From Methanobacteriota archaeon (lineage in GTDB: Archaea > Halobacteriota > Bog-38 > Methanoflorentales > Methanoflorentaceae): 64,000 nucleotides of DNA. This document shows, piece after piece, positions 6,630-64,000 of the stretch. A model generated the notes under the pieces. That model was not told where the DNA came from and did not search any database. It saw nothing but the letters and a program-made list of their open reading frames with translations. A program made the translations under genes and the position numbers. The stretch lies in contig CAVRAO010000002.1 of assembly GCA_963719035.1 (NCBI GenBank), positions 426,846-490,845 on the forward strand, written 5' to 3'. Within the stretch, counting starts at the first letter, position 1. Each line of letters opens with the position of its first letter.

Positions 6630-6658
6630 GGGTTAACCATACAACAAAACGATTTACG

Positions 6659-7822: not shown

Positions 7823-7826
7823 CTGG

Positions 7827-11927: not shown

Positions 11928-11928
11928 C

Positions 11929-13113: not shown

Positions 13114-13115
13114 AC

Positions 13116-35586: not shown

Positions 35587-35619
35587 TTGGTTGGACTGCA
35601 GCTTTCGTAACGCATTTAC
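35548..35619. repeat. 72-bp direct repeat, copy 2
   Basis: Perfect copy of 32473..32544. Confidence 0.95.
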
Positions 35620-44683: not shown

Positions 44684-44815
44684 CTCAGCACCACACTCAG
44701 GGCACGAGACAGCGCACTTTATGTTTTCATTGTGCTCGTCCCTCTGTCATTGTTCCACCTCTTGTTAACTACTAATTAAAGCGTAGCGGAGTATAAAATA
44801 GTGTTTTAAATCCAG

Positions 44816-45301: not shown

Positions 45302-45934
45302 TGGTTCGCCTGCCCTTCAAATGTCCTTAAATTCCATCTCGTAGATGAATTGGGAGCCTATATCCTTATCAAAAGGGTATTGTCAAATCTTTGACGTCGT
45401 CTGTGTTCATTGATCGTGATTGTGTGCGACACCACGAAAGGTGAGGTAGACTCACTTCTTGATCCTATATTGTTGCCACACGGTCTCTCAACGTAAAGTT
45501 TATCTTTTGTTACCGTTTTTGGAGGAGTGCTTAGCTTTCACTTATAGGAGGGCAAAATGTTAGGCAAACTTCTACTAATTAAGATGCTAACGATAGCAGG
45601 GTTTGTGGTCATGCTGCTGCACGTCTTATTTTTCGTCGCCACCTTAGCGTTGCATGCCCTGTTCTTAGCTCCTCGACTTGGAAAGATAATGAAGCGTAAC
45701 TCGTCGCGGGACGCTTGTTGCTGAGCTAACCGTGCGAGGACCTGCCTCTAGGAAGAAAGAAAACCCCATCGACAGGGATGATGGCGCCTTGAACATAGCT
45801 TGCTAAGTCACTCGAGAGAAAGAGGACGACTTTTGCCGCCTCGTCAGGCGCAGCCCATCGTCCTTTGGCAAGCCGTTGGTGAAAATCATATCCACTGTTG
45901 ACAAGATCAAGCTGTACGTTTAAAATGGCACCCT

Positions 45935-46846
45935 TCACCAGAACGGGGGAAAAACTGCGGGCATCTTCAGAAGGGTAAAGACAGCAAAGGCCAGCCCGCC
46001 AAGTGCTGTGTTGACATACGGGAGATACCAGTAGAGACGGTCGATGGAAACCTCTTCGCGGAAAAGAAGTACTGCTGGAAAAAGCGGATATATGATTACT
46101 AGAAAGCTGAGCGGGTACAAGCCCGCAAGTAGGAGCACCAGCAGAGAAAATAATGTCCAAAAAGCTGTGCATAATAGGAGCGAAGAGCGCCTTCCGAGCC
46201 AGACTGCTGTCGTAGTGATCCCGGCAGCCCGGTCGTACCGGATATCCGGTATTGCGGAAAAAATGTGCATCGCCGATATATGCAAATACCCGGCGATAAC
46301 TAACAAGAGCGGGGGGGTCTGGCCTGCTGCAAGATAATAACCAAAGATTCCCGGCATGATATAGAGCATATTTGAGGAGAAATCAAGAACCGGGTGCTGC
46401 TTGAAACGGAGCGGCGGAGCAGAATAAAAATATGCAAGAAACAGAAATATAAGAAAAATCACCTGCTCGGTACGATCTTGCGTAACGAGGAGCGCCAGGG
46501 AAAAAGCAGCAAAGATAGTGAGCAGGAGCAGCGTTTTCCGGTGTTCGTTTGCTTTTAATTTGTGCTCTTTTCCCACTTTCTTGGGATTCTGCCGGTCGGT
46601 CTCCTCGTCCCAGTAATCATTGACGCCGTAGATAAACAGGTTTGCTGGGAAGAAGAAATAAAAAAGGTAGAGATAGTAGAGCGGAGAAAAAAAAATCTGC
46701 CAGTTTTCCATGCCGAGCGCGACACCCAAAACAAAGGTGCCACCGGTATAAATCCAGAATCTGAAGCGCGATATGGTAAAAGCGAGAGGGAGCAGGGATA
46801 TGGAAAGTATCCGGTTTCCCACGTTAGATTTCATACCGTGGTGCAC
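45935..46846 (-). CDS. UbiA-family prenyltransferase (lycopene-elongase/CrtEb-like by context)
   Basis: 303 aa, multi-TM; NDxxDxxxD motif (NDYWDEETD); overlaps crtB by 23 nt. Confidence 0.7.
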   Translation of the reverse strand: MHHGMKSNVGNRILSISLLPLAFTISRFRFWIYTGGTFVLGVALGMENWQIFFSPLYYLYLFYFFFPANLFIYGVNDYWDEETDRQNPKKVGKEHKLKANEHRKTLLLLTIFAAFSLALLVTQDRTEQVIFLIFLFLAYFYSAPPLRFKQHPVLDFSSNMLYIMPGIFGYYLAAGQTPPLLLVIAGYLHISAMHIFSAIPDIRYDRAAGITTTAVWLGRRSSLLLCTAFWTLFSLLVLLLAGLYPLSFLVIIYPLFPAVLLFREEVSIDRLYWYLPYVNTALGGLAFAVFTLLKMPAVFPPFW

Positions 46847-47693
46847 CCGGGAACTGAATCCTGCATAACGGGATATGCACGCTGTTGTAAAGGATTCTCA
46901 TGATAATTCGCGAGATCGAAGGGCGAACAAAAGTCCTGTAAATGACAAATGGGTCCCTTGCTATCAAAGTAGCGGTCCATTTGTACATTTCTGCAGCAGT
47001 CCTGATGGGTATCAGGTACCGGTATGGTATAAACCGGTAGCCCCGTTCCCCTTCCTCCTGCCAGCGGTAATACTGGGCGATCTGTTCCCTGATAAAGAAC
47101 CGGAACTGTTCGGGTGCGTCCCGGGCGTCTGACTCTTCCAGCCCGGAAAGACCGCACCGTCGAATATATTCTTGCGAGAAATACACCCGGCCTAATTTCA
47201 GATCTTCTGCAATGTCGCGGACGAAATTGATATACTGCATGGACCTGCCCAGCAACCGGGCATAAGGAAAGGACTTCTCGGGTAGATCAAGGATCCGTGC
47301 CATCATAAGACCTATCACCTCTGCAGAACCGTAGAGGTACTGATCGAGTTCCAGCTGCGTCTCGTACCGACTCTTGCTGAGATCAGCACGCATTGAAGAG
47401 AGGAAAGCATCAATCCACTCGCAGTCGAACTGTTTCAAGGCAGCAAGTCCTGCAAACCCGTCAATTACGACATCCCCGGTGATGCGGCCATCCGCTGCAC
47501 ACTTCCATCGATCGCAGAATGCTTTAAATTCCTGCTTCTGCTGAGGGATGCTGTCAACAAAATCGTCTGCCTGGCGGACAAAGGCATAGAGCATAAAAAC
47601 GTCCTTTCTCACTTCGGGCGGGAAAAAAAGGCTGGAATGGAAATATGTTCTACTCCCTTTTCTGAAGATCTGGTAGTGTATGGACTGCCCCAT
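46824..47693 (-). CDS. crtB: phytoene synthase (squalene/phytoene synthase family)
   Basis: 289 aa; …YAFVRQADDFVD… Asp-rich motif 1 and second DxxxD region. Confidence 0.8.
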   Translation of the reverse strand: MGQSIHYQIFRKGSRTYFHSSLFFPPEVRKDVFMLYAFVRQADDFVDSIPQQKQEFKAFCDRWKCAADGRITGDVVIDGFAGLAALKQFDCEWIDAFLSSMRADLSKSRYETQLELDQYLYGSAEVIGLMMARILDLPEKSFPYARLLGRSMQYINFVRDIAEDLKLGRVYFSQEYIRRCGLSGLEESDARDAPEQFRFFIREQIAQYYRWQEEGERGYRFIPYRYLIPIRTAAEMYKWTATLIARDPFVIYRTFVRPSISRIIMRILYNSVHIPLCRIQFPGAPRYEI

Positions 47694-47708
47694 AGTAGGA
47701 TACCTACA

Positions 47709-49202
47709 TTACTTATGGTATTTATCTGTAAGTTCAGCGGCCACTATTGTCGATGATATAATGGTCATGGGTACACCGATACCGGGGTGAGTGTAGTGGC
47801 CGGAGTAAAAGAGATTGTCGACCTTTTTGCTTTGGTGGGCAGGTCGCCATAGGGCAGTCTGGAAGAGTGTATGCGAGAGGCCCAGCGCCGTGCCCTTGTA
47901 CGCGTGATAGCGCTCTTTGAAATCATTGAGGGCAAACGCCTTTTTCACCACCACTGCATCCCGGATCCTGTCACCGGTCGAGGCTTCCAGTTTGTCCATG
48001 ATGAGGGTGTAGAACCGTTCGCGGATTTCTGGTGAATCTTCAAGCCCAGGTGCGAGAGCCACGAGGATAAACAGGGTGTCGCAGCCAGGAGGGGCAGCCG
48101 TCGGATCGGTCATCGAGGGAACATTGACGTAATAGGAGGGATTTTTTGGCCATGCGGCCTTTTTTGGGTCAAATATCTCATCGAAGTTATGCTCCCAGTT
48201 CTTATCCAGAAAGAGCGTATGGTGTGCTAAGCTCTCAAAGCGCCTGTTTACGCCCACATAAAAGACTATGGCTGAAGGGGCCATCACGCGGCGCTCCCAG
48301 TATTTCCTGTCATAGGTCCGGTACTCCGGATTGAGGAGCTCGAGTTCTGCAAACGCATAATCCGCATTCACGAGAACGATATCGGATTCATAGGTTCCTC
48401 CGGAGGTCCGGACTCCCTGTGCTTTGCCGTCTCTGACAATAATTTCCGTCACCGGTTCGTTGAACTTGAATTCTGCGCCATAGTTCTCTGCAAGATCTCT
48501 AATTACCGTTGCCACTTTCCGCATTCCCCCGACCGGATAAAAAACTCCGAGCGTAAGGTCGATGTGTGACATTATGTGGTAAAACGAAGGGGTGTTCTTA
48601 GGTGAGCCGCCTAAAAATCCGATTGAATACTCGACGATCTTTTTTGCCTCGTCACTCGTAAAGTGCTTCGAAACAAATGTGTCAAGATTCTCAAGGATGT
48701 GCATTTTCCTGCCTTCGATCAGCATGCGGCCGGAGAAGAAATCAAAAATGGATTTATAATCCCTGTAGAGCATCTCGTTGATCGAGAGGTCGTATTTTTC
48801 TTTGGCAGATGCAAGGTATTTCTTTAGTTTTTGGCCGCCACCTTGCTCAAGAGAATCAAAAAGTGCAATATTTTTATCAAGGTCAGCGGCAATGTCCAGC
48901 ACCTTGCCGTTGCCAAAATAGATTCGGTAGGAGGGGTCAAGTCGCGGTAATTCCATCAGATCGTTAGCTTTCTTTCCGAACTCCATGAAAAATTTTTCAT
49001 AAACATCCGGCATCAGGTACCAGGAAGGCCCCATATCAAATATGTACCCTTTTTCAGAATAGACACTGGCCCGTCCGCCGGGTCCTTCATTTTTCTCCAG
49101 TACAAGAACGTCGAACCCATTTTTTGCGAGCAGCGCAGCAGCTGATAGTCCCCCAAATCCTGCCCCGATAGTAATTACCTTTTTGCCGTTTTTTTCCGCC
49201 AT
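47709..49202 (-). CDS. crtI: phytoene desaturase (CrtI family)
   Basis: 497 aa; N-terminal FAD fold (…ITIGAGFGGLSAAALLAKNGFDV…), CrtI-family C-terminal signature. Confidence 0.85.
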   Translation of the reverse strand: MAEKNGKKVITIGAGFGGLSAAALLAKNGFDVLVLEKNEGPGGRASVYSEKGYIFDMGPSWYLMPDVYEKFFMEFGKKANDLMELPRLDPSYRIYFGNGKVLDIAADLDKNIALFDSLEQGGGQKLKKYLASAKEKYDLSINEMLYRDYKSIFDFFSGRMLIEGRKMHILENLDTFVSKHFTSDEAKKIVEYSIGFLGGSPKNTPSFYHIMSHIDLTLGVFYPVGGMRKVATVIRDLAENYGAEFKFNEPVTEIIVRDGKAQGVRTSGGTYESDIVLVNADYAFAELELLNPEYRTYDRKYWERRVMAPSAIVFYVGVNRRFESLAHHTLFLDKNWEHNFDEIFDPKKAAWPKNPSYYVNVPSMTDPTAAPPGCDTLFILVALAPGLEDSPEIRERFYTLIMDKLEASTGDRIRDAVVVKKAFALNDFKERYHAYKGTALGLSHTLFQTALWRPAHQSKKVDNLFYSGHYTHPGIGVPMTIISSTIVAAELTDKYHK

Positions 49203-49394
49203 GCCAAGACACCGAATCCATATCGGGGCATCCTTTTAATATAGATTTGGCAGAGAACATTTGTAATCCAGGAATAATCAGCTATCCGCAGGCAACGCAT
49301 TTTGGCGCCATTACTCGGCAAATTTGCTTAGTGGATTTGTAGACGGATAGTAAATCCTAGAAGTAGTAAAAACGTCTAAATAAGCCCTTTCGAG

Positions 49395-49532
49395 GCTCTG
49401 AATCGGGTTAAAATCCCGAACCGGGCGTTCTTTTTCAATATAAGGGTAAAAATTAATCTCTTTTTCTAAAATAAGCTTTTTTAGATCAACGATTTGAGAT
49501 TCGAGAGCGGAAAGGCGATGGTCGTAGCCTGG
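49395..49532. repeat. degenerate att-like repeat (T-arm-like + T-rich + coiled-coil-coding segment), partner of 44350..44480
   Basis: Shared anchors: taaaataag, gatttgagattc, CGGGTT-AAATC-CCG. ~70% identity by eye. Confidence 0.4.
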
Positions 49533-49535
49533 TCA

Positions 49536-49655
49536 AAACTGCACGTTAGCATACACTTCCTGTACGTCCTTATCAATAAACTGCATGTAGATTGCTGTTA
49601 TCTTTATACTAGAGTGACCCAGCACCTGCTGCACTGCCGAACGAATGACCCACAA
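49536..49655 (-). pseudogene. tyrosine-recombinase (integrase) C-terminal remnant (~40 aa)
   Basis: Translation …IRSAVQQVLGHSSIKITAIYMQF… matches the LLGHSSIxTTxIY catalytic-Tyr box; flanked by stops. Confidence 0.55.
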
Positions 49656-50129
49656 CTATAGTTCTTGCAACCCCTCAACAAACTGGCGTAGCTTGTCTTG
49701 ATAAACGCCTTTCTTGACCTCTTTTTCCTGGAGAGCAAGGATGCTTACCGGGCGTCTTTCACAGAGTGCTTCCATCTCAGCAAATAACTGCTGACTCTCA
49801 CCACCGCCATTTGTGCAAAAAAATGCTACCCGTGTGAACTTCGACTTATTGTTGGTGATGTAGGTCCGCGGAGCACTCGACAACGTGCCTGCCCAAATGG
49901 GCGTGCCGAGTATTACTAAATCGTATGACGCGGGATCACGTTTGATGTCTGTGAGCTTGGTGAGCTTCTTTGCCTTTGCGTCCCTTCCAGCCGACACAAA
50001 GCCCAGAGGCCCGCTGCGTTTTTTTGTATCAATAAGTTCTTCACTGTCGCAGTTGAGCGACTCAGCAAGCGCTTCCGCTACCTGTTTGGTCGCACCTGTT
50101 CGCGAATAAAATACCACTAAAGCCTTCAT
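49656..50129 (-). CDS. flavodoxin-like protein
   Basis: 157 aa; …VVFYSRTGATK… FMN-binding loop. Confidence 0.65.
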   Translation of the reverse strand: MKALVVFYSRTGATKQVAEALAESLNCDSEELIDTKKRSGPLGFVSAGRDAKAKKLTKLTDIKRDPASYDLVILGTPIWAGTLSSAPRTYITNNKSKFTRVAFFCTNGGGESQQLFAEMEALCERRPVSILALQEKEVKKGVYQDKLRQFVEGLQEL

Positions 50130-50220
50130 TATAAGTTCCTTCCGTAAGTTAATTCGGTTTACCGGCTTAAGGCTTTTTGCGGCAGTTCATCATTTTAATC
50201 TAGTGGATTGAAATACCCTT

Positions 50221-52095
50221 TTAACTATTTATTAAGTGCATCACTATTTTTTCAACTTCGACTGCCTTGCCATTCTTAAGATTTTTGATGCAACTATGCT
50301 GCGCTTCACGAATTTCAGCAGTAGGCTCATTAGCAATAGCCGTGAACTGAGAAACCAGCCGCTTAGCCCCGACAAAATTCCCGACACTTACCCGCCGATT
50401 AACTCCGCGGACATCTAAAACCGTCCCGTCCATACAAGGCGGGTGCTCACAATACAGACATTCAGAAGCAAATCGCATCACCTCGCGAATAGCCTCAGGC
50501 TCATCAGTAAATAGCTCAGACCTCTTAAACGGATGCGGTACAATCTCAACATAGTTGGGCATATCCTTCTTATAGGTGAATGGCTCCAAGCCGCGTTTCT
50601 TCAAAATGGCGTTGGCGGCGGTGAGGCCTGAGACGGTGACAGCGGGGGTTCCGGTGCCCATGCAGGTAGATTCGCCGCAATAGAACAAAGTGTCCCAAGG
50701 GCTTCTGATGTGCAGTCTTTTGAACATGTGTTGCCCGAGCATTTGTTTGGGGCCGGCGACGGCGCCATCATTCTTATTCGTGTAGCGCTCGATGGTGAGG
50801 GGGGAGGCTAGTTCGGCGTAGCGGACGGCTTGGCGGAAGCCGGAAAAGCGTTTTTCAATGACGTCCAGGATGCGTTGGACTTCGAGGTCTTTGCGTTGGC
50901 TGTAGGCTTCGGGGGAGAGGGATTCCCAGTTTTCGAAGGAGGGACCTATGGCGATGACGGTGTGGACGTCATCATCGCAAAGGGTTTGGTCGTCGATGCT
51001 CATGATATAAAGGGTGACTTCGCTTTCGTCGATTTGGTCGGGATTGCCGATGAGCATTTCGATAGGCAGGGTATCAGAAGGAATCACGCTTTTATCGACC
51101 GTAGTATAAAGAACGACGCTCGGGTACGTTGGAACAAGGTTCCGCGCCCATTCATTCAACGAGGGGGGGAGGTAAGAGGTGTCGATGAGTTTTCCATAGA
51201 GGTTCCAAACAGTGCCAGAGTAAATGATATCATCGCCGTAGAAGCGTTTGCCGGTCGTGATTTCGACGCCGCAGGGTTTTTCGCCGTCAAACAATATTTG
51301 GCAGACTTCGCTTTCGTAGTGAATTTCACCACCGTTTTCTTCGATACTTTTTTCGAGTTTGCCGGGCAGGAAGAGGGTGGAGCCGGCCGGGTAGTAGCTG
51401 CCGCCGAAGTGGTTGTCCACGAACATGACGGCTGCAAGAATGGCTGGGGCTTCTTCGACCGTGGCGTAGCAGTAGGTGGAGGTGAGTTTGTCGAAGAACT
51501 TGAAAATTTCAGGGTCTTTGAAATACTGCCTCAGGAGGCTTCTGGCTGATTTGTTCATATAACTCAGGAAACGTGCGTAGGAAACCGGATGGCGTAACAG
51601 GCTTTTCAGAGACTCGACTTTGTCGGTTTCGTCGGGGGAGGAGAAAACCGGATTTTCGACCATGACGTGGTGGTAAATTTCGTTGAGGTCGTAGTAGAAG
51701 CGTTTGATGTTGGCTTTTTCAGAGGGAAAAACTATGCTGAGTTCTTCAGCAAAGAGGTCAAGGTCTTCGTGAAATATGATGCGGTGGCCCTTATAGACAA
51801 CGGCGTAAAGCTGGTCGTGCTTGATGATGCGGATGGGTTCCTCCAGGCAGTTAAAAACTAAGCGGTGGGGGCTGAAGCCTTTCTCGCCGAAGCCGTAGAG
51901 CATGGCGGCGCCTTGGTCGAAAGTGGTTATGGCAGCTTGGTCAGAGGTAGCGGTGTCACGTTTGAAAACCCCGCAAGACCCGCCCGGGGTGAAAGTCTTT
52001 TCGAAGAGAAGCACTTTTTCGCCGCGTTTGGCCAGAAGGGCGGCAGCGGTTAAACCGGAGAGGCCGGAGCCGATGATGAGGGTGGTTTTGGACAC
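50221..52095 (-). CDS. CrtD/CrtI-family carotenoid desaturase-like FAD oxidoreductase with ~120-aa Cys-containing C-terminal extension
   Basis: 624 aa; N-terminal …IIGSGLSGLTAAALLAKRGEKV…; C-terminal …CLYCEHPPC…. Confidence 0.6.
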   Translation of the reverse strand: MSKTTLIIGSGLSGLTAAALLAKRGEKVLLFEKTFTPGGSCGVFKRDTATSDQAAITTFDQGAAMLYGFGEKGFSPHRLVFNCLEEPIRIIKHDQLYAVVYKGHRIIFHEDLDLFAEELSIVFPSEKANIKRFYYDLNEIYHHVMVENPVFSSPDETDKVESLKSLLRHPVSYARFLSYMNKSARSLLRQYFKDPEIFKFFDKLTSTYCYATVEEAPAILAAVMFVDNHFGGSYYPAGSTLFLPGKLEKSIEENGGEIHYESEVCQILFDGEKPCGVEITTGKRFYGDDIIYSGTVWNLYGKLIDTSYLPPSLNEWARNLVPTYPSVVLYTTVDKSVIPSDTLPIEMLIGNPDQIDESEVTLYIMSIDDQTLCDDDVHTVIAIGPSFENWESLSPEAYSQRKDLEVQRILDVIEKRFSGFRQAVRYAELASPLTIERYTNKNDGAVAGPKQMLGQHMFKRLHIRSPWDTLFYCGESTCMGTGTPAVTVSGLTAANAILKKRGLEPFTYKKDMPNYVEIVPHPFKRSELFTDEPEAIREVMRFASECLYCEHPPCMDGTVLDVRGVNRRVSVGNFVGAKRLVSQFTAIANEPTAEIREAQHSCIKNLKNGKAVEVEKIVMHLINS

Positions 52096-53228: not shown

Positions 53229-53402
53229 ACGGCGTTATGAAAAATATCCGACTCACGCACGGAATAGATAGAGAAAACATCTGCCCTACCAACGCTTGTT
53301 GCTGAAGCGGTCCAATGAAACGCTTCAATTGCCGCTAGAATAAAAAAAGCTTTCGCTAGACAAAGAAGTAGCTAACACAAAAAAAGAAGACGCGGAGCGT
53401 TC

Positions 53403-54182
53403 TTACGCTCCCGCGTAGTACAATGTACCTTTTCCTCCCTCGCCGCGATCTCCTTGGTAGACCTTGACAGCATATTGCGTACCATCATAGTCGATTTGGT
53501 CGTCTTTCTTGTAAATAAAGCCAGTCAGCCAATACCCAATCTTACCGAGGACAATAATCTCGCCCTTCGTCATTTGAGCACCAACTCGACTCTCTGCATC
53601 CCCTTCGATGACGATCTTACCACCGTGCGCGTGAATGCCGGCCTGGAGATCAACGTTACCTTTGACGACGATTTCGCCGGCTACCATAGCTTCGCCTAAG
53701 TCGCTCCCGGCATTGCCGCTTACGACGATCTTACCACCTTTCATGCCGCGCCAGTCACCGCGATAGCTAGCGCCGAGGTAATCACCTGCGTTTCCGTCGA
53801 TGACCAATTCGCCGCCTTCCATGCCTATGCCAGCGTATGCACCGGCGTCACCGTTTACGCGAAGTCTACCTCCGATCATCCAGCCGCCTGCATACATGCC
53901 GACTGAGCCTTTTACCAGAAGCTTACCCGCGGACATTTTCATGCCTATATACTTCACCTTCGGAACTGATCCATCGATGATGATGCCGATCTCGTTCGGG
54001 TCGGGGTCGGTTTCTCCAATTACGTCAAAATAGTCTCCGAGGGCGTACGTTCGGTTGCCCTCGTAGATCTCAACCGCTCGGACTTCGTCAAGCGTCTTGC
54101 CAGCAAAGTCGTCAGGCGTGACGTTATCCGCGTCGAGGAACATATACTCTTTGTCTTTAGGCCGAAGCGTGATCTTTTTCAC
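53403..54182 (-). CDS. fwdC: formylmethanofuran dehydrogenase subunit C
   Basis: 259 aa; repeated G-x-x-G beta-helix repeats characteristic of FwdC. Confidence 0.8.
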   Translation of the reverse strand: MKKITLRPKDKEYMFLDADNVTPDDFAGKTLDEVRAVEIYEGNRTYALGDYFDVIGETDPDPNEIGIIIDGSVPKVKYIGMKMSAGKLLVKGSVGMYAGGWMIGGRLRVNGDAGAYAGIGMEGGELVIDGNAGDYLGASYRGDWRGMKGGKIVVSGNAGSDLGEAMVAGEIVVKGNVDLQAGIHAHGGKIVIEGDAESRVGAQMTKGEIIVLGKIGYWLTGFIYKKDDQIDYDGTQYAVKVYQGDRGEGGKGTLYYAGA

Positions 54183-55886
54183 TTACGCCACCCCCGGTTT
54201 GATAACTAGACCGCGTGCAACGTACTCGTCTTGGACTGGATAGTTGTTCTTCGTGACGCTGTAGAACCTTAAGAACTTCTTTTCGATGTCCTGCATGATC
54301 GCTGGGTCCAGAACGCCGTCCGTGGCATCGACCCAAATCGTACGCTTGTTGCCCTTACTCACAACCTCTCCGTCTATGACGACGATGTCGCCACCTTTAA
54401 TCGTGCAAGCCGTGTCTTTAAACGCCTTTTCAATGCCTGCAGGGTCCGTTGTGGGATCCATGGTCTTCGGGTTGTAGTTGAATATCGCAACATCGGCGTC
54501 AGCGCCGACTCCCAGATGGCCCTTCATATCACCAAGTCCGAGCGCTCGAGCAGGACCCGCGCGTGTCATCTTAGCAATGTCGTAGAAATCAAAAACGCGA
54601 GAGATACCGCCAATAGCGACCCGATCAGGCACTACCTTATGCAACGTCTCAAGTCGGTCCAGCCGAGCTTGATTTGACATAAGCCAGCTAATTATGCGTG
54701 GATAGCGCCTGAAAGGCCCAGCATTGGGATGATCTGTCGTAATGAACGCCTGCATTGGATCATCGATCAGAAGCGCGAGCTCAAGTCCTATGGCCCACTG
54801 GATGCCGCACACACTAATCTTTGGGCTGTATATGTATGGAACGACGCCAGCAGCGGTTTCGAGTTCGATATCGGCATTTGACCACTTGAGGTGGTTCGTG
54901 TTATGGAGATAGAACTCCATCGGGCCGTCAGCGGTCATCGTTGTGGTCTCGTCAAGCGTGACAAACCCAACGTCGACCGTCATATTCTTATTCTTGTTTA
55001 TGCTGTCAGCGATCGTTTGGGCTTCGGTTTCAAAGTCTTTCCACGTGGTACCACCATACGAGTGGAACTGCATATGGGCAAAGTTGATCACTTGGTCCCT
55101 TTTTCCGTTCTTTGGCAAGATCCCTTCAAGGAGTTTGATGGAATCAAGAGTAGTTTGGTAGTTACCTGGATGCCCTAAGTTGTTGGGGTGGAGGTGAATC
55201 GAAGTCGGCAGGTTCAAAGCCTCATTCGCCTCGGCAAGCCCGCTGATAATCTCAGATGGCATTACATCGAAATACGGAACTGGATCGTAAACGTTGACAC
55301 AATTCATGCCCCATCCCCAGGCTTCTGAACCGCCTGGATTGACGAGCTTGATGGCGTATCCCTTCGTCGCATTGAGCATCCACGCTACGAAGGCGTTTAG
55401 TTTGTCCTGCTCTCCACGCTTAACGTACTCCATCACGAGCCAGTTGTTGCCGAGCAGTGTGTAGGCCGACTGGTCAATCAGCGGTGTGTCTGCCATTTCC
55501 TCATGCGTGTGCCGAGCTAATAGCGGCGGCATTGCCGCTTCGTTCACCTGGGTGTAGCCCATGCGCGAATATACGTAGCCGGTCTCAAACACAGAAGGAA
55601 CTGAGAACCCGCCACCCGACCGCGTAAATTTGCCGCGCTTTGACGTATTAAACAGCTTATCCTCGGGCCTCATGTTGCGGCCAACGTTTACCTTAGGCCC
55701 TGCTACGTGGGCGTGTATGTCAATCCCACCTGCCATTACTACTTTGCCGCTCGCATCGATGACTTTGGCGTTAGGAGAGACTTTGTCTACTATCTTGTCG
55801 TCTCGAATAGCGATGTCCATAACATCGCCATTTACGCCATTTTTAGGATCGTAGACGTATCCATTTTTAACTATTATTTCACTCAC
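54183..55886 (-). CDS. fwdA: formylmethanofuran dehydrogenase subunit A (amidohydrolase)
   Basis: 567 aa; amidohydrolase metal-binding …GGIDIHAHV…. Confidence 0.85.
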   Translation of the reverse strand: MSEIIVKNGYVYDPKNGVNGDVMDIAIRDDKIVDKVSPNAKVIDASGKVVMAGGIDIHAHVAGPKVNVGRNMRPEDKLFNTSKRGKFTRSGGGFSVPSVFETGYVYSRMGYTQVNEAAMPPLLARHTHEEMADTPLIDQSAYTLLGNNWLVMEYVKRGEQDKLNAFVAWMLNATKGYAIKLVNPGGSEAWGWGMNCVNVYDPVPYFDVMPSEIISGLAEANEALNLPTSIHLHPNNLGHPGNYQTTLDSIKLLEGILPKNGKRDQVINFAHMQFHSYGGTTWKDFETEAQTIADSINKNKNMTVDVGFVTLDETTTMTADGPMEFYLHNTNHLKWSNADIELETAAGVVPYIYSPKISVCGIQWAIGLELALLIDDPMQAFITTDHPNAGPFRRYPRIISWLMSNQARLDRLETLHKVVPDRVAIGGISRVFDFYDIAKMTRAGPARALGLGDMKGHLGVGADADVAIFNYNPKTMDPTTDPAGIEKAFKDTACTIKGGDIVVIDGEVVSKGNKRTIWVDATDGVLDPAIMQDIEKKFLRFYSVTKNNYPVQDEYVARGLVIKPGVA

Positions 55887-55905
55887 GTTCTCTCACTCTC
55901 CTTCC

Positions 55906-57285
55906 TCACGTTGCCCGCTGCAATATACTGTCAAACGCTCTGACTTCTTCCGGCTCCTTGACCGCTGTGACTTCTGGGACTTCGAGCCCCTGAAGTTCCA
56001 TTACGCGTCTGTGGATGCGCTCAATGATTTCTTTGTCAGTTAGAACCCCTTCAGGCGGTTCAACGACCTTTCTCATTCTTATGGGAACGTTGTCCATGCG
56101 ATATGCGCTGCCTGCGTCCTCAATGCCCACGATCGCGCTTGGAATATACACGGATGCTATCTCCGTCGTTGGAGTCACGTGTGGATCGATGGCTATCATC
56201 GGTATTGAGGCAAGCGTCCGCACCATGTTAATTGGGAAATGCGCTCCCGGATCCGCAGCAATGATCAGTGCCGCATCGGCTTCTTTACGTGCTAAGATGT
56301 CGGTTGCGGAGGTTTCGCCTGGATTGTACCGCGGGAACCCTCGGGCGAAGTCGACCGCGTACGGAAACCCACATTCCCACAACGAAACTTGATCGGCTCC
56401 AGCAACGTTATAATGTCCTCGCATGGCCATAATGAGGAACTTTGTGTACGTGTTCAAGTCCCGCGTTAAGCTTATGGCGATGTCGATATTCCGATGCTTT
56501 CCTCGCGTCATCGTAAGGCCCATACCGAAGAAGATGATTCCAAATCGGCTGTCTTTCATCGTTTGCGCGACCTTTTCAATATCGGCTCTTGGGATCTCTG
56601 CCACAGATTCCGGAAGCGGTTCGCCTCTGAGAGCCACACGCAGCGCATTCATAAGCTCGTAGTCTCTTCCCTGCTCGGGTTGGATGAAGATATCAGCGTT
56701 CTTAGCCGTTTCGGTGTTACGGACATCGACAACGATTTCAGTTCTGTCGGACTTACCCCGCTCGGTGAAGAAGCCGCGCTTGTACAACGAGTACCGGCTC
56801 ATGTGGCGCGGATGTGCGTTTACGGGGTTGCACCCCCAGTAAAGCACCGTATCTGCGCGATTGATGATCTCGCCGAGAGTGCAGCTTGGAACGCCGACCG
56901 TGTGTATCGCCAACATCGACGGCCCGTGGCAACACACTGATGTGTTGTCCATCGTGCCGCCTACGTCTTCGGCAAGCGCCATGCCAGCCTCCTGCGCCTC
57001 ACAATGAGTCGAGCTCCACCCATAGAGAAGCGGGTGTTTGGCGTTAACGAGAATCTCTGCTGCCTTGTTTATCGCCTCGTCCATCGTGCACTCGACGAGC
57101 TCCCCTCCTCTGCGCATGCGCGGATGCAAGTGCCGATCAGGCGCTTGAGCCGTCATAAACTTATTGTCGCCGATGATGCATGCATTTCGTGTCGCGATGA
57201 TCTTCTCGGCATCATCGATATCTACTTCGAGGTCATCACATAACGTTCCACAAAATGGACACACGACGTCTGTTGCGGTTCTCAT
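55906..57285 (-). CDS. fwdB: formylmethanofuran dehydrogenase subunit B (Mo/W-bis-PGD)
   Basis: 459 aa; N-terminal CPFCGTLCDD FeS motif, molybdopterin oxidoreductase fold. Confidence 0.8.
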   Translation of the reverse strand: MRTATDVVCPFCGTLCDDLEVDIDDAEKIIATRNACIIGDNKFMTAQAPDRHLHPRMRRGGELVECTMDEAINKAAEILVNAKHPLLYGWSSTHCEAQEAGMALAEDVGGTMDNTSVCCHGPSMLAIHTVGVPSCTLGEIINRADTVLYWGCNPVNAHPRHMSRYSLYKRGFFTERGKSDRTEIVVDVRNTETAKNADIFIQPEQGRDYELMNALRVALRGEPLPESVAEIPRADIEKVAQTMKDSRFGIIFFGMGLTMTRGKHRNIDIAISLTRDLNTYTKFLIMAMRGHYNVAGADQVSLWECGFPYAVDFARGFPRYNPGETSATDILARKEADAALIIAADPGAHFPINMVRTLASIPMIAIDPHVTPTTEIASVYIPSAIVGIEDAGSAYRMDNVPIRMRKVVEPPEGVLTDKEIIERIHRRVMELQGLEVPEVTAVKEPEEVRAFDSILQRAT

Positions 57286-57731
57286 GCCTCTACTCCTCCT
57301 TGTGTCGTCATCTTTATGAGGGCGATGGCGCCTAAAACCTTCTTTCCTGGCGCAGGGGTTATGGTAACCATTATACCTTTGTATGAAGGCATCCCCGTCG
57401 TATTTGTCTCAGGATCGACGACTTGATTTGCCCATGGCCCCATCGGAATGAATACGATTCCTGGATGCGGCCCATACGGCGATTTAATTGCTCGTACCAC
57501 CACTTCACCGTAGTCAGACTTGACCAAGACGCTCGATCCCGGCCAAACGTTGAGCGTTTTGAAGTCGCTGGGATCGATATGCACGAACCCAGCAGCATCA
57601 ATGTACTCTTGCTTGTCCTTCCATCCTTCGATGGCAACGCCCTGTTCAATGGTCCGTCCGGTGATGAGGTTAGCCGTAAAAACTGGGTCAGAACTCGTCA
57701 TCCGCCGCGACACCTTCCTGCCCTGCTGCAA
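57282..57731 (-). CDS. fwdD: formylmethanofuran dehydrogenase subunit D
   Basis: 149 aa; molybdopterin-dinucleotide-binding beta-barrel. Confidence 0.75.
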
Positions 57732-58158
57732 CTGCCTGCTTCAACGGATTGGGGCCCAGTTTCTTAATGGTGTTGACCATATCCTGGACCACCTCTGCCC
57801 AAATGGCACCTTCTGAAGCGGATATCATTGTCATGCGCAAGCGCTCACGGTCGTAACCGTACTCTTCAATGAGCTTTCTTAGGAGCGCAACGCGACGTCG
57901 CGACTTGAAGTTGCCAGCAAGATAGTGACAGTCACCAATGTGGCAACCCGATATAAGCACGCCATCCGCTCCAACGCTCAGGGCCTTCAGCACGAACGCT
58001 GGATCGAGTCTGCCTGTGCACATGATGCGGATGACTCGTACGTTCGTCGGGTACTGCATTCTCGAGGTACCAGCGAGGTCAGCCCCCGCATAGGTGCACC
58101 AGTTACAGAGTATACCTAAGATGTTTGGTTCAAATTCCTCTGCCATTGCTATCACCAC
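57688..58158 (-). CDS. mvhD: MvhD-like subunit (F420-non-reducing hydrogenase delta / Hdr-associated)
   Basis: 156 aa; …[13 protein letters not shown]…, …CTGR…, …GCHIGDCHY…. Confidence 0.8.
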
Positions 58159-60132
58159 CCCTGGGCAAACGCTTCTATTTCACTCATAATCTGCTCATTC
58201 GTGAAGTGCTGCATCTTTATGGCGCCGCTTGGACACGCGGAACCGCACGTGCCGCAACCCTTACACTTCGCCTCATTGACGCTCGCAACAAGCTTGTCGT
58301 CAACTTGGTGCAGCTCAGTCGCGCCGTATGGGCACAGACCGATGCACGTGGCACAGCCCCCGCAGTGTTCCTGGTCTACGATAGCGTAGATCGGTTCGAG
58401 GGTGACTGATCCCCTGTGTATCGGGATTGATGCTGCTGCCGCTGCTGCCGCTGCGTGACTCACGACATCCGGAATATCTCTCGGTCCTTGGCACATCCCT
58501 GCTAAGAATACCCCATCAGTGGTCGTCGACATGGGGTTAAGCTTCGGGTGCGCTTCTAGCAAGAACCCATCCGGACTGTTAGAAAGCGTCAGAAGCGTCT
58601 TTATCTTCGATGTGCTCTCAGCGGGCACCACTGCATTTGCCAACACTACCATGTCAAGTTCCATCTCGAGGGTTTGTCCAAGGAGCGTATCCTCAGCCGT
58701 TACGGTAAGGTTCTTTGTGACCGGATCTTCGGTGATCCTCGAAACGCGACCTCGGATAAACTTGCCGCCTTCATTCTGAATGCGGTAGTAGAACTCCTCG
58801 TACGCCTTGCCAAAGGCTCGTATGTCCATGTAGAACAAGTAGGGCACACATCCCGGCATCTTCTCGATCAACTGGTGAGCGTGCTTCAAGCTGTACATGC
58901 AGCATACACGCGAGCAGTACCGGCTTAGCACCGTCCTCTTCATCCTGATCACGCGAGCCTGCGCAGAGCACAAAGCCAACGCTCTTAGGCTTCTGACCGT
59001 CAGAAGGCCTGACGACGTTTCCACCTGTCGGACCGGATGCGCTGATCAACCGTTCTAACTCGAGCCCAGTCAAAACGTTGTCGAAGACCTTATAACCCCA
59101 CTCTTCCTTGCGCTCAACGTCGTACATATCGAACCCAGTGGCGACGATAATCGTGCCCACCTTGACCGTCACGAGCTCGTCGGGCTTGTCGAAGTCAATT
59201 GCCTCAAGGTCGCCGCACGCTTCCTGGGTTTTACAGAGGTCACACTTGATACAGCTGTCCATGTCAATGGTGAACTTGAGCGGCACTGCCTGTGGGAACG
59301 GCACATAGGCCGCCTTTCGAGGCTGCAAGCCCAGGTCAAACTCGTTTGGCCGTGAAACAGGACATACCTCTTGGCATTTGCCACAGCCGTTACACTTGTC
59401 TTCGTACACATATCGCGACTTCTGGCGAATGGTAACGTCGAAGTTTCCTATGTAACCGCTTACGTCTTCGACCTCCGAGTAGGTCATCAGCTCAATATTT
59501 GGATTGCGCTCAACGTCGACCATCTTGGGTGTCAGTATACATTGCGAGCAGTCGAGTGTGGGGAACGTCTTGTCGAGACGGGACATCATGCCGCCGATGG
59601 ACGGCTCCTTCTCCACTAAATACGTCTTTATTCCCGCATCGGCAAGCTCCAGTGAGGCTTGGATGCCGGCGATACCTGCGCCGATAACGAGCGCAGCCTT
59701 TTCAACCGGCACTGTCTTTGCAGTGAGGGGCTCCAGCATTGATGCCCGCGCGACCTCCATTCTGACTACATCCTTTGCCTTTTGCATTGCCTTTTCTGGC
59801 TCTTCCATGTGAACCCACGTGTTCTGCTCTCGGATGTTCGCCATCGAAAACAGGAACTGGTTTACTCCGCCCTCTTCAGTCGCTTTCCTAAACGTAGGTT
59901 CGTGTAGCCTTGGTGAACAAGCCGCTACGACCGTCCCGTTGAGGTTGTGTTCCTTGATGGCGTCTCTGATCATGGTTTGGCCGGGCGTTGAACACACATA
60001 CGTATAATCCTCGGCGTATGCAACGTTCGGCAGCGTCTTTGCGTACTCAGCCAACGCCTTAACGTCTATGACGCCTGCGATGTTAGTACCGCAGTGACAT
60101 ACGAATACGCCGATTCTCTTCTCTTCGTCCAT
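58152..60132 (-). pseudogene. hdrA: heterodisulfide reductase subunit A, second copy, in two overlapping frames (58771..60132 + 58152..59024)
   Basis: Frame 1 carries the N-terminus through …LCAGSRD…; frame 2 carries …YCSRVCCMY… through the C-terminal ferredoxin. A +1 shift sits within ~58918-58960 (ccgg). Confidence 0.8.
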
Positions 60133-60150
60133 TTGTGTTTACCTCCTCCC

Positions 60151-61035
60151 TCACAGTAGTTTTGCGAGCAGTGGCTCAACGCTTATCTCGTGGGCATCGA
60201 GGCCCAACTCTTCAGGGTTCATGCCCTGTGCTAAGCCAAGAAGCTGGTTGTAGTGGAGAACCGGCAGGTCGTACACATCCCCAAACTTCTCCTTGATTTC
60301 AACCTGTCCACGATCTAACTGGAGGTGACAAAACGGGCAGACATTTACTACGACGTCTGCGTTTGCTTGCATCATATTGTAGAGCTTTTCGTTAACCATA
60401 TCGAGCGCGAGATCGACCTTATACGATCGAACACCGCCTCCCGCCCCACAACACATCATCTTTTCCTTGTAATCGACCGATTTGGCCCCTAGTGCCTCAA
60501 CCAGCTCATCGAAGAATACCGGTCTTTCTGAAGAACCGAACGTCCTGTCGAACTTTGGCTTTAGCAAGTGACACCCGTAGTGAATGGCCACGTTCAAGCC
60601 GGTCAGTGGCAGTTCAACCGATTCCTTCACTTTCTCAGTTCCGACATCGTTGTATAGAATGTCGATTAGGTGTCGAACCTCAATTGATCCTTGAAACTCA
60701 GTATCTATGTTTGCAAGAATCGAATTGATTTTGTCCTTCAACTCCGGATTGCCTTTAAGCCGGTGATTCGCCTCGAACAGCGACTTATAACAGCCGTTAC
60801 ATATTAGGGCTATGTCTTTGCCTTCCTTTTCAGATAGGCAAATATTTCGCGCTCCGAGCGCAAGCCACGCATCCACATCCATTGATCCGAATGCGCCAGG
60901 TGCGGGGCAGCACGACGCTCCTTTGAAATCTTGTAGATCGATATCGAACTTTCTTGAAGTCTTCACTGCAGACGATTCAATGCCGGGATATCTGTTAGGA
61001 GCGATACAGCCTAGGAAGAAATTATACTCCTTCAT
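60151..61035 (-). CDS. hdrB: heterodisulfide reductase subunit B
   Basis: 294 aa; two CCG domains (…SCCPAPG…, …CCGAGGG…, …CPFCHLQLD…). Confidence 0.85.
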   Translation of the reverse strand: MKEYNFFLGCIAPNRYPGIESSAVKTSRKFDIDLQDFKGASCCPAPGAFGSMDVDAWLALGARNICLSEKEGKDIALICNGCYKSLFEANHRLKGNPELKDKINSILANIDTEFQGSIEVRHLIDILYNDVGTEKVKESVELPLTGLNVAIHYGCHLLKPKFDRTFGSSERPVFFDELVEALGAKSVDYKEKMMCCGAGGGVRSYKVDLALDMVNEKLYNMMQANADVVVNVCPFCHLQLDRGQVEIKEKFGDVYDLPVLHYNQLLGLAQGMNPEELGLDAHEISVEPLLAKLL

Positions 61036-61589
61036 TGACTTTCCGCCTCCATCTCCTCTCTGATTTTAAGTAGTCCCGTAACCTCGAGTATCTTGTTAAT
61101 GTCTTTAATGTACTCTGGGTACGTGTGTGTCGTCGGGGGGTTCTCGGGCAGTCCGAGCAAAACGCGTTTTTTCATGTTACCCTCGCTGTTCGGAACTCCG
61201 TGACCCGTCTTGGAGATCGCGCCCATGATCTTTATCATGCTCATCGGCACTTTGTGCTCCCGGGTCGCAATATTCCGCAGCGCAATGATAGCATCGGTTG
61301 CGATGATCCGGCGCGGGCACCTATCAGAGCACGTATAACACGTTGTGCAGAGCCACAGGTCTGGATCGTCGAGCACCTCTCTCATGCCTAGATTAGCCTT
61401 TCTCATTATCGTTCTAACTCGCAGCCCGCTTCTTTGAGTCATTGGGCAGCCTGCAGTGCACGTTCCACACTGGTAACACATTTGCGCGTTCTTGCCGCCG
61501 CGGGCTTCGACCTCTTTGATGAGATCCGGGTCAAATTGAGTTTTACCAAGCTGATAGTGCTTTGGGTCTCTCATTCCTTCGCTTGTCAT
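61032..61589 (-). CDS. hdrC: heterodisulfide reductase subunit C
   Basis: 185 aa; CYQCGTCTAGCP / CTTCYTCSDRCP. Confidence 0.8.
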   Translation of the reverse strand: MTSEGMRDPKHYQLGKTQFDPDLIKEVEARGGKNAQMCYQCGTCTAGCPMTQRSGLRVRTIMRKANLGMREVLDDPDLWLCTTCYTCSDRCPRRIIATDAIIALRNIATREHKVPMSMIKIMGAISKTGHGVPNSEGNMKKRVLLGLPENPPTTHTYPEYIKDINKILEVTGLLKIREEMEAESQ

Positions 61590-61591
61590 CT

Positions 61592-62704
61592 TTATGTCCC
61601 CAGCTTTTCGATCGTCGGAGTCTTAAGCTCCATCATCTTGCCAGCCGTTTTCTTGTAAAGCTCCGTCTCCGTGCCTTCGATGTGTATCACGTCGCGCTTG
61701 ACCTCAATCGTGTTAGCGACCGGACAAACGTTCACACAGGCACCGCAGAGCACACAGAAGTCGTCGTTAACTTCAAGCTTCGCTGCGATTTCTCCGGGCT
61801 CTTTTTGAGGTGGCAAATACAGTGCGTTACACGGACAGATCTCTACGCATGCAGAACATCCTGCTGGGCAGTTTTCCGTCTTTATGTCAATAGAGCCTTC
61901 AAAGATCTTCTTAATATCAATGGTGTTCTCGATAGGGCACGTCTTTGCGCACCACGTGCAGAACATACACTCATCTTTGTTGATCGTGACCTCGCCCTGG
62001 AGCTTGGCCTCAGCGATCGTACGATCTATTTTTATTGAGTCCGTCGGACAGATCTCCTCACAGATCTTGCACCCATCGCACTCAGCAGAGTCAAACTTCA
62101 CTTCGCCGGCTGCTTCGATGTTGATGGGGGTCGCCTCTTCATGCTCCACCGTCAACGCGTCACAGATCTCACCACAAAGACCACAATAGGTGCACTTGTT
62201 TTCACTTCCCGGGTCCTCGTCGAGTTGCATCTCGGCGGTGTACGTGATCGCTTGCTGTCGCCCAGTGACCTCTGGCACGTTTCGCTCTATCGCGTTGTCG
62301 CGTGGACACATCTCTTCGCAAACCTTGCATCTCACGCACGTGTCTAGGTTTATCTCAGCTACCTTTAGGTAGTGTGGGAATCCTTCCTGGTCAATGAGAT
62401 CGGTCTTCGGCTCACCGTTCTCGGTGAGTTTTAGCGCAGTAAATGGACACAATTCCACGCATACGCCGCAATATGAGCACTTCTTCTGATCGAAGACCAT
62501 CTCGGGGACTTCCATCTCCTTAAAGCCCACAGCGCCGACTGGACCCTTCTCTATGGCCTCTTCTGGACATACTTCTTTACAAATGCCGCAGCCAGTACAT
62601 CGCTCCATGTCAAGAGCGAGGTTGAGGACCTGTACCAGCGTTTTCTGTTCTATGATCGATTTTCGTCCTTCCTCTCTTTTAGAGTATATCGGAAACAAAG
62701 CCAA
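61592..62704 (-). CDS. fwdF: polyferredoxin (FwdF/MvhB-like), ~8-10 [4Fe-4S] motifs
   Basis: 370 aa of tandem CxxCxxCxxxCP motifs. Confidence 0.7.
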   Translation of the reverse strand: MALFPIYSKREEGRKSIIEQKTLVQVLNLALDMERCTGCGICKEVCPEEAIEKGPVGAVGFKEMEVPEMVFDQKKCSYCGVCVELCPFTALKLTENGEPKTDLIDQEGFPHYLKVAEINLDTCVRCKVCEEMCPRDNAIERNVPEVTGRQQAITYTAEMQLDEDPGSENKCTYCGLCGEICDALTVEHEEATPINIEAAGEVKFDSAECDGCKICEEICPTDSIKIDRTIAEAKLQGEVTINKDECMFCTWCAKTCPIENTIDIKKIFEGSIDIKTENCPAGCSACVEICPCNALYLPPQKEPGEIAAKLEVNDDFCVLCGACVNVCPVANTIEVKRDVIHIEGTETELYKKTAGKMMELKTPTIEKLGT

Positions 62705-62719
62705 AGCTCATTCCCTCCT

Positions 62720-62944
62720 TTATTGTGTTAGCTGGATGCAATCTCTCGGACATGCCTGAAGGCAAACGCCGCACGCTTCGCAGACATCCTCGTCTACGGC
62801 GAGGGATTTGCCACCCTGCACTTTGTACGTCTTCTTGGTCGTCGCGGGCTCATCAAAGACGAGTTCAAGCGCGTTGACTGGACACGCCACGACGCAGTTG
62901 TTGCAGCCAGTGCAGCTCTTATCTATGTGTAACGCAAATGTCAC
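62720..62944 (-). CDS. fwdG: 2x[4Fe-4S] ferredoxin, FwdG-like
   Basis: 74 aa; CTGCNNCVVACP / CEACGVCLQACP; first gene of the operon. Confidence 0.6.
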   Translation of the reverse strand: MTFALHIDKSCTGCNNCVVACPVNALELVFDEPATTKKTYKVQGGKSLAVDEDVCEACGVCLQACPRDCIQLTQ

Positions 62945-63697
62945 TTATTTCACCAGCCTCGTATCAACTAAAAAGTCAACTAGTTCACTCGTAGGTTCAA
63001 AATGTGTAATATAAAAAGCTTATTATTTCGTTCGATTATCAAAGCCATTTTGTCGCTTTAAACCTACCCATCACTTCGTTTAGCGCATCGACAAACGGCG
63101 TTCGCCGTTCCTCGTACGCTAGCATTCATATATTATTTAGTCTGATTATATATTATTTACTTCAATAAATCAAATTCTCGCGTAAGTTTATACCTTTCAA
63201 AACTAGCGAATTAGCAAGATTTTTTAGGCATAAACTGCGTGTATTATTTTTAAAAATATACATATATATATTTGTCATTTGAAGATGATAAAGCTGCTGG
63301 CAACGTCACCAACCCAGCAGCTAGTCACGTTCGTTTAACGATAAAGCGTCGAACTCGCGCGCCAAACGGGAAGTCTGTACGGTTTCAGCCCTTCCAGCGC
63401 GTTTAAAGAGCCAAGAATATCTCGCGTTCAAATAGAGCTATAACAATTTTATATATTAGTAATTTCATATAAATACCTAGTTAGAATTGATAGCAGTTTT
63501 GGCACTTCGGTGTAGAATATTTTTGAATTGAACTTCTTTATAACATCTGTTCAAAATATTTTATATAGAGGGAGCCAAAATACAAGTGGGTCAAGAGTGT
63601 GAGGCAATTTTGCATATCTCCGAGAGGTCATGGCTTATGTGACATTCTAATTGACTCTCACTGCTTTTCCAGATTTTAGACACGAGGTGACTCATAA
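62945..63697. promoter_or_regulatory. AT-rich divergent intergenic region likely holding archaeal TATA/BRE promoters for the fwd-hdr operon (-) and the mvhG-like gene (+)
   Basis: Very AT-rich; TATA-like tttatatta (minus sense) ~70 nt upstream of fwdG ATG; SD-like gaggtga 7-13 nt before the 63698 ATG. Confidence 0.3.
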
Positions 63698-64000
63698 ATG
63701 GGAGATAAGGTAAAGGTCCAAGAAGACTGGCTAGCTGTTTGTTCTGGTTGCGAAATAGCCGTTCTAGATCTGCACGAAGCGCTTCTAGATGTGCTGCAAG
63801 CAATAGAGTTCGTTCGCATTCCAGTTTTAATGGATATTAAGGACTTTGATCAACATACTACGGTCGGCATACTGACTGGTGGCATTCGCAATGAAGACAA
63901 CTTGCACGTTGCTCAGAAAGTTCGCGAGACTTCAGACATCGTAGTTGCGCTCGGCAGTTGCGCGGCGTTCGGTGGCGTTCCAGGTTTGAACAACATCAAC
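63698..64000 (+). CDS. mvhG: [NiFe]-hydrogenase small subunit, MvhG-like (partial, runs off window)
   Basis: Open frame: MGDKVKVQEDWLAVCSGCEIAVLDLHEALLDVL…GGIRNEDNL…ALGSCAAFGGVPGL, like MvhG/Vhu small-subunit N-termini; not in the supplied ORF track because there is no stop inside the window. Confidence 0.6.
   Translation, partial: MGDKVKVQEDWLAVCSGCEIAVLDLHEALLDVLQAIEFVRIPVLMDIKDFDQHTTVGILTGGIRNEDNLHVAQKVRETSDIVVALGSCAAFGGVPGLNNIN

Follow-up and report, generated by a model that had tools for sequence, protein, structure and literature searches.

Introduction

In the formate dehydrogenase (Fdh)-heterodisulfide reductase (Hdr)-formyl-methanofuran dehydrogenase (Fmd, or Fwd) complex of Methanospirillum hungatei, low-potential electrons travel from HdrA to the site of CO2 reduction along the polyferredoxin subunit FmdF, and no free ferredoxin is involved in this transfer (PMC13580544). 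FmdF proteins of the so-called Group 2 do not have the loop-2 cysteine pair for a bridging FF9 cluster and wire HdrA to Fmd directly, without MvhB; they occur in class II methanogens, i.e., the Methanomicrobiales and the Methanocellales (PMC13580544). Here we analyze a 64,000-nt stretch of archaeal DNA (contig CAVRAO010000002.1 of assembly GCA_963719035.1; hereafter, the window), whose minus strand carries, from 53403 to 62944, ten genes of the same orientation in the order fwdG-fwdF-hdrC-hdrB-hdrA-mvhD-fwdD-fwdB-fwdA-fwdC. The region is probably the fwdGF-hdrCBA-mvhD-fwdDBAC operon that is conserved in class II methanogens, which have no cytochromes, with mvhGA diverging from a shared 753-bp control region.

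Neither the arrangement nor its interpretation is new: they are known from Methanocella, from the Methanomicrobiales and from the peat lineage itself, and the window adds one instance. In Methanocella conradii, the genes Mtc_2468-2479 have the same order by locus tag, and a large transcript unit was reported for Fwd, Hdr2 and MvhD; these genes were up-regulated in syntrophy, and a bifurcating Fwd-Hdr-Mvh complex was proposed (PMC6046458). The gene order in Methanocella, the single transcript unit and the proposal of a Mvh-Hdr-Fwd complex have all been published (PMC6046458, PMC12054007). A 2025 survey of 1,152 HdrA sequences repeats the Methanocella cluster and includes Bog-38 among the lineages with hdrA-fwdB clusters. 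Clustering of Fwd and Hdr genes has also been noted for Methanocorpusculum parvum (PMC5563889).

The window belongs to the peat methanogen lineage Bog-38, or Candidatus (Ca.) Methanoflorentaceae. The members of this GTDB family, also referred to as Rice Cluster II, are obligately hydrogenotrophic and abundant in northern peat (10.1101/2025.08.21.671631). Its relatives were retrieved by scanning species-representative genomes for exact peptide words with the N-terminal part of HdrA as query: 14 metagenome-assembled genomes (MAGs) from peat, bog and fen match this part of HdrA at 88-99% identity, one of them being the isolate 'bog_38', and their DNA is 76-93% identical to the window locus over the aligned stretches. 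In northern peatlands Bog-38 is one of the most abundant lineages of methanogens, which makes the locus relevant to the biology of methane flux.

Results

Gene content and order of the operon

The genes of the window were assigned from a listing of its open reading frames (ORFs) and from comparisons with Pfam, NCBIfam and the Protein Data Bank (PDB). The preliminary description of this DNA, made from the letters alone, had claimed the gene order given above, with small or overlapping gaps. The searches bore out both points: all ten genes are present in their places on the minus strand, and the junctions from fwdG to fwdC measure 15, 2, -4, 18, -7, -44 (-14 with the ATG start of fwdD), -4, 19 and 0 nt, i.e., between a 44-nt overlap and a 19-nt gap. 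Five of the genes, namely fwdA, fwdB, fwdC, hdrB and hdrC, pass the curated cutoffs of NCBIfam equivalog models.

The first gene of the operon, fwdG (62720-62944), has a GTG start with a Shine-Dalgarno (SD)-like GGTGA upstream, and encodes a ferredoxin of 74 amino acids with two [4Fe-4S] motifs (CxxCxxCxxxCP). It is followed by fwdF (61592-62704), whose product is a polyferredoxin with eight such cluster motifs, which account for 32 of its 33 cysteines. That these two genes are related to Fwd at all was a premise of the preliminary description, and it proved correct. FwdG matches M. hungatei FmdG (7BKB_L, 80 bits) and FwdG of Methanothermobacter wolfeii (5T5I_G), and FwdF is a true FwdF/FmdF protein, with M. 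hungatei FmdF (7BKB_K) as its best match in the PDB (355 bits, residues 2-365) and a score of 188 bits against M. wolfeii FwdF. There is no cysteine in FwdF residues 134-170, between the third and the fourth cluster motifs, which we take as loop 2. With its eight cluster motifs, no cysteine in this presumed loop 2 and M. hungatei FmdF as its best match, the protein fits the Group 2 type, which is defined by eight clusters in four ferredoxin domains and by the missing loop-2 pair.

The hdr genes follow. HdrC (61032-61589) scores 176 bits against TIGR03290 (cutoff 160) and has two [4Fe-4S] motifs. The catalytic subunit HdrB (60151-61035) scores 474 bits against TIGR03288 (cutoff 345) and matches PF02754 twice, in keeping with its two CCG domains; both CX31-39CCX35-36CXXC motifs are present with canonical spacing (C10/C42-43/C79/C82 and C155/C195-196/C233/C236). 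The bifurcating flavoprotein HdrA (58152-60132) is encoded in two overlapping frames as sequenced, and is considered separately below. The end of hdrA is overlapped by mvhD (57688-58158; PF02662 FlpD, E 2.4e-51), which encodes the [2Fe-2S] adaptor that links HdrA to the electron donor; its product also matches VhuD, as well as positions 643-774 of an HdrA2 fusion model.

The remaining fwd genes close the operon. The ORF of fwdD spans 57282-57731 (PF01568; NF042908 FwdD, E 1e-35), and its start is probably the ATG at 57701, which is preceded by an SD-like sequence and gives a protein of 139 amino acids (57282-57701); the fwdD orthologues on three peat metagenome contigs (L085-L087) were likewise called as 139 amino acids. 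The CO2-reducing pterin subunit is encoded by fwdB (55906-57285; TIGR03129, 605 bits, cutoff 328), the amidohydrolase-type subunit that forms formyl-methanofuran by fwdA (54183-55886; TIGR03121, 799 bits, cutoff 393; PF07969), and the last gene is fwdC (53403-54182; TIGR03122, 265 bits, cutoff 131; PF01493 GXGXG). The best PDB match of FwdB is the tungsten FwdB of M. wolfeii (5T5I_B, 554 bits); M. hungatei FmdB scores 464 bits. In the alignment with 5T5I_B the N-terminal cluster motif CPFCGTLCDD is conserved, and Cys119 of the window protein aligns with the catalytic, metal-ligating Cys118 of M. wolfeii; the residue is cysteine, not selenocysteine. The NCBIfam models labeled 'tungsten-dependent' rank first for FwdA, FwdD and FwdF and second for FwdC, all with scores below the cutoff (900/950, 123/175, 249/375 and 237/340, respectively), and sequence cannot reveal the metal specificity.

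Transcription signals and the divergent control region

A scan for bacterial-type sigma-70 promoters is uninformative for an archaeon, and TATA boxes and oligo-T runs were inspected instead; conservation of the control region was assessed in an alignment of 12 Bog-38 sequences. The probable promoter of the operon is a TATA box, TTTTATAT, with AAGC before it, at 63009-63016 on the minus strand, some 65 nt ahead of the start of fwdG. This box is invariant across the 12 sequences. The motif TTTATA[TA] does not occur on the coding strand inside the operon, and its sole other match in 53300-63700 is intergenic, at 63473. Similarly, no run of at least six T lies within the operon on the coding strand; from 63700 to 53300 the only such runs are two of seven T past fwdC, at 53379-53385 and 53342-53348. 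Together with a terminator-like hairpin over the fwdC stop (53394-53411), they mark the probable end of the operon, at 53342-53411. Because the junctions are at most 19 nt, and because there is one conserved TATA box with no internal TATA-like motif or T6 run, these features are consistent with one transcription unit, short of proof, and we infer a single transcript.

The divergent control region between fwdG and mvhG (62945-63697) is AT-rich and 753 bp long. Alignment of the 12 relatives places the TATA box of mvhG at 63560-63567 on the plus strand. An invariant 21-mer, TGGGTCAAGAGTGTGAGGCAA, lies at 63587-63607, near the predicted mvhG transcription start, and further conserved AT-rich blocks are found at 63131-63169, with a tandem TAAATAATATAT repeat, and at 63449-63472. 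The 21-mer has a single site in the window (0 expected by chance). It was considered as a regulon motif and set aside, there being no second site in the window. Exact matches to its 15-nt core were found only upstream of mvhG, at eight Bog-38 loci; the remaining loci that were retrieved, among them those of Methanocella, have none. Rfam matched no family in the 753-bp region, and gave a single tRNA for the whole window.

On the far side of this region, mvhG begins at 63698 on the plus strand and runs off the window at 64000, so that only its first 101 codons are included. It encodes the small subunit of Mvh/Vhu, the F420-non-reducing [NiFe] hydrogenase that associates with Hdr. The divergent MvhG-like small subunit noted in the preliminary description is real: the fragment aligns with positions 1-99 of the 286 in the VhuG/MvhG model NF045875 (E 1.4e-29). 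The preliminary description had also proposed to look downstream of the window for mvhA and mvhD. One relative (L013) has at the same position a full-length mvhG (302 amino acids) and then mvhA (473 amino acids); the window's own mvhA would lie beyond the edge. In this relative no mvhB-type gene comes after mvhA, the next gene being an unrelated RFC.

Conservation in Bog-38 and in other methanogens

The order fwdG-fwdF-hdrC-hdrB-hdrA is kept in all 14 Bog-38 relatives. Downstream, mvhD follows hdrA in each of the 12 contigs that extend beyond it; on the other side, a divergent mvhG is present in all contigs that reach so far (11/11).

The loci of Methanocella and Methanofollis were located through the genomic context of FwdB homologues, and the comparison of gene order that the preliminary description had proposed gave a clear answer. 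The genome of Methanocella paludicola (AP011532.1) has the identical ten-gene order twice, and FwdB is identical between the two copies. One copy (L081, 1573785-1593152) is followed by fdhA-fdhB, and the other (L082, 2703080-2722447) has a divergent mvhG-mvhA; mvhGA occupy the same place in the Bog-38 relative L013 and in M. paludicola. The different neighbors suggest that the two copies are donor-specific versions of one supercomplex. The ten-gene order is also present in Methanofollis formosanus (L083), of the Methanomicrobiales. That is, the order is kept across three methanogen orders.

At the protein level, HdrA is 71% and 67% identical to that of M. paludicola in its N-terminal and C-terminal segments, respectively, and 65% and 64% identical to that of Methanofollis. 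The next-best loci in the word-based scan were hdrA-mvhD loci of Bathyarchaeia and Asgard archaea, at 55-59% identity and without fwd genes. A 'Bathyarchaeia-like' origin of this Hdr was considered and rejected; in direct comparison the Bathyarchaeia and Asgard proteins reach only about 58% and 44%, and Methanocella and Methanofollis are closer.

A different arrangement was observed in parts of Bog-38. In five MAGs (L001 and L003-L006) the operon is reduced to fwdGF-hdrCBA-mvhD-fwdA, without exactly fwdD and fwdB (55906-57671 in the window) and fwdC, as for example at 11974-14186 of L003. L005 is the complete genome OY970393.1, whereas L003, L004 and L006 come from drafts. The peat metagenome contigs L085-L087 carry a separate fwdD-fwdB-fwdC unit (e.g., 8585-11199 of L085), whose products are 90%, 86% and 94% identical, respectively, to those of the window. 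This unit adjoins an HTH_1 regulator and three moeA-like genes, and upstream of fwdD it keeps, as a relic, some 30-50 nt of the 3' end of mvhD. The reduced operon and the separate unit were seen on different contigs, not linked to one genome. A simple story of a single loss was discarded: in a neighbor-joining tree of the shared 5 kb, the relatives without fwdDB and fwdC are not monophyletic. The split arrangement in some Bog-38 genomes is possibly worth a separate study.

The reading frame of hdrA

The preliminary description had counted hdrA as a gene of the operon. The gene and its place were confirmed, but not a single open frame: as sequenced, hdrA consists of two overlapping ORFs in different frames, 58771-60132 and 58152-59024. 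A DNA alignment with six relatives locates the break at one extra G at 58920/58921, where the window reads CCGGTAC and the relatives CCGTAC, and hdrA is unbroken at this position in 12 of the 12 Bog-38 contigs that span it. With the frame corrected, HdrA has 659 amino acids, a GxGxxG motif, 28 cysteines and three CxxCxxCxxxCP motifs, and matches HdrA of M. hungatei (7BKB_A) at 969 bits over residues 3-658. The break falls inside the cysteine-rich stretch Cys390-Cys428, just ahead of Cys406.

Selenocysteine and programmed frameshifting were both considered as causes and rejected, given that the break is a +1 insertion, involves no TGA codon and is not conserved. Elsewhere in the window, the essential alanyl-tRNA synthetase gene alaS (minus strand, 15361-18185) is likewise broken: it reads as three ORFs, each in a frame of its own (17004-18185, 15989-17068 and 15361-16029), and at least one of these breaks resembles a single-base insertion. 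Because the relatives do not have the extra G, and because alaS is also split, a one-base error of assembly is the most plausible source of the break in hdrA, a real mutation being less favored. It follows that frameshifts in this assembly, with its apparent indel errors, should not be taken for pseudogenes.

The second hdr cluster and other genes of the window

At the opposite end of the window lies a second hdr cluster (42-5120), for which the preliminary description had listed hdrCBA, with HdrA fused to MvhD, and a COG1900-ferredoxin protein; all of these were recovered. The cluster consists of hdrC (42-569), hdrB (607-1485) and a gene for an HdrA-MvhD fusion of 788 amino acids (1460-3826), which is 40% identical to the HdrA of the operon. 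It ends with methanogenesis marker 16, a HcyBio/COG1900 protein of 424 amino acids (486 bits in NCBIfam, cutoff 364) with a C-terminal ferredoxin-like domain that contains two cysteine motifs. Next to it is a tRNA gene (5307-5380).

The stretch that separates the two hdr clusters holds genes of the archaeal mevalonate pathway (5595-9580), which encode HMG-CoA reductase, a thiolase and a protein with an ACP_syn_III_C domain that is possibly HMG-CoA synthase. It also holds a 2-oxoacid:ferredoxin oxidoreductase of three genes (10977-14039). The nitrogen regulator NrpR is encoded at 35616-36359. A carotenoid-type cluster on the minus strand (43068-52095) resembles the bacterioruberin genes of haloarchaea. 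It encodes a glycosyltransferase (43068-44288), a Staygreen-family protein (44816-45301; PF12638, E 3e-52), a UbiA prenyltransferase (45935-46846; PRK12875, above cutoff), a phytoene/squalene synthase (46824-47693), a CrtI/CrtID desaturase (47709-49202; NF058655, 676, cutoff 640), a flavodoxin (49656-50129) and a CrtD/isomerase-like protein (50221-52095).

Discussion

The closest solved structures to HdrA and FwdF are subunits of a supercomplex, namely chains A and K of 7BKB, in agreement with the likeness to Fwd-Hdr(-Mvh/Fdh) supercomplexes that the preliminary description had drawn. By analogy, the products would assemble physically into one complex, with H2 as the donor and a direct, ferredoxin-independent transfer of electrons. 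In such a complex MvhAG would oxidize H2, and the electrons would pass via MvhD to the FAD of HdrA, to be bifurcated there. The high-potential electron would proceed via HdrC to the non-cubane clusters of HdrB, where the heterodisulfide CoM-S-S-CoB would be reduced, and the low-potential electron would cross the HdrA ferredoxin domains to reach the polyferredoxin wire of FwdF, with FwdG. At the pterin site of FwdBD, CO2 would be reduced to formate, which FwdA would then condense with methanofuran to yield formyl-methanofuran. In this way the operon would link the final reaction of methanogenesis back to the initial one, as in the Wolfe cycle.

Several points weigh against this interpretation. 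The gene mvhA falls outside the window, and hdrA is frameshifted as deposited. The solved class II complex, that of M. hungatei, uses formate dehydrogenase, and the Mvh version is predicted, not solved (PMC13580544). Lastly, because free ferredoxin is among the acceptors that the M. hungatei complex reduces, the coupling need not be strictly ferredoxin-free (PMC13580544). The direct ferredoxin-free coupling put forward in the preliminary description is therefore supported by the homology to the M. hungatei subunits, but its exclusivity is not.

The first alternative concerns only the donor. The complex may be as proposed, with formate or reduced coenzyme F420 (F420H2) as the source of electrons and Fdh or Frh docking on MvhD. 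This possibility is compatible with the explanation we favor, and in its support FdhAB operates with MvhD in 7BKB, fdhAB directly follow the L081 cluster of M. paludicola, and fdh of M. conradii was induced more than mvh in syntrophic co-culture (PMC6046458). The neighboring gene, however, is a divergent mvhG(A), as it is in the 11 Bog-38 relatives with contigs long enough on that side; no fdh gene stands beside the cluster in the window; and Bog-38 has been described as obligately hydrogenotrophic (10.1101/2025.08.21.671631). We therefore regard a donor other than H2 as rather unlikely.

Alternatively, the genes might be clustered only for co-expression in matched amounts, Hdr/Mvh and Fwd being separate enzymes with diffusible ferredoxin between them. 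The ability of the purified M. hungatei complex to reduce free ferredoxin would accord with this idea, as would the location of fwdDB and fwdC outside the operon in some Bog-38 relatives, which implies that membership in the operon is not essential. Nevertheless, FwdF and HdrA are closest to the very subunits of 7BKB that form a direct wire, and the gene order is interleaved, hdr being flanked by fwdGF and by fwdDBAC, in all three orders. Moreover, each class of methanogens studied to date has yielded supercomplexes. Separate enzymes appear highly improbable.

The frameshift in hdrA might also be real, in which case the Fwd-linked Hdr would be inactive, or HdrA would be made in two pieces, and the cluster at 42-5120 would reduce the heterodisulfide. 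The extra G is indeed present in the given sequence, and the second hdrCBA in the window is complete, with an HdrA that is 40% identical to the first. Yet the frame is intact in all six aligned relatives, the rest of the operon shows no decay, and the two breaks in alaS point to indel errors in the assembly; furthermore, halves separated within Cys390-Cys428 are unlikely to form a working HdrA. We consider this highly improbable. Least credible of all is its extension, in which a genuine extra G has inactivated the Fwd-linked HdrA, leaving the organism reliant on the cluster at 42-5120, and in which this event and the relocation of fwdDB and fwdC reflect the dismantling of hard-wired coupling in parts of Bog-38.

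Among the known systems close to the operon as we interpret it is that of Methanocella. Both M. conradii and M. paludicola SANAE have the identical ten-gene order, one M. paludicola copy also has the divergent mvhG-mvhA, and the Methanocella proteins are 47-71% identical to those of the window. The differences are that the window belongs to another lineage, Bog-38/Methanoflorentaceae, and shows one copy, with a frameshifted hdrA, whereas M. paludicola has a second copy with fdhAB. The Fdh-Hdr-Fmd complex of M. hungatei (7BKB) provides the closest solved HdrA (969 bits) and FwdF (355 bits), and likewise has no MvhB. It differs in its donor, which is FdhAB, while the adjacent donor genes here are mvhGA; in its FmdG, which has 146 amino acids compared with 74 for FwdG of the window; and in its FmdB, the window FwdB being closer to the tungsten enzyme of M. 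wolfeii. M. formosanus shares the ten-gene order, but its cluster is followed by mcrBDCGA and mtr, with no adjacent mvhGA; many Methanomicrobiales are without MvhAG.

The class I supercomplexes, namely (Mvh-Hdr)2-Fmd4 of Methanothermobacter marburgensis and Hdr-Vhu-Fwd of Methanococcus maripaludis, resemble the complex proposed here in that H2-driven bifurcation feeds CO2 reduction via polyferredoxin wires. These complexes, however, require the polyferredoxin MvhB and an FmdF of Group 1, which forms tetramers and has cysteines in loop 2, whereas FwdF of the window is without cysteines in loop 2 and the relative L013 has no mvhB beside mvhGA. Finally, the class I genes are distributed over separate mvhDGAB, hdr and fwd/fmd operons; here, they are interleaved in one.

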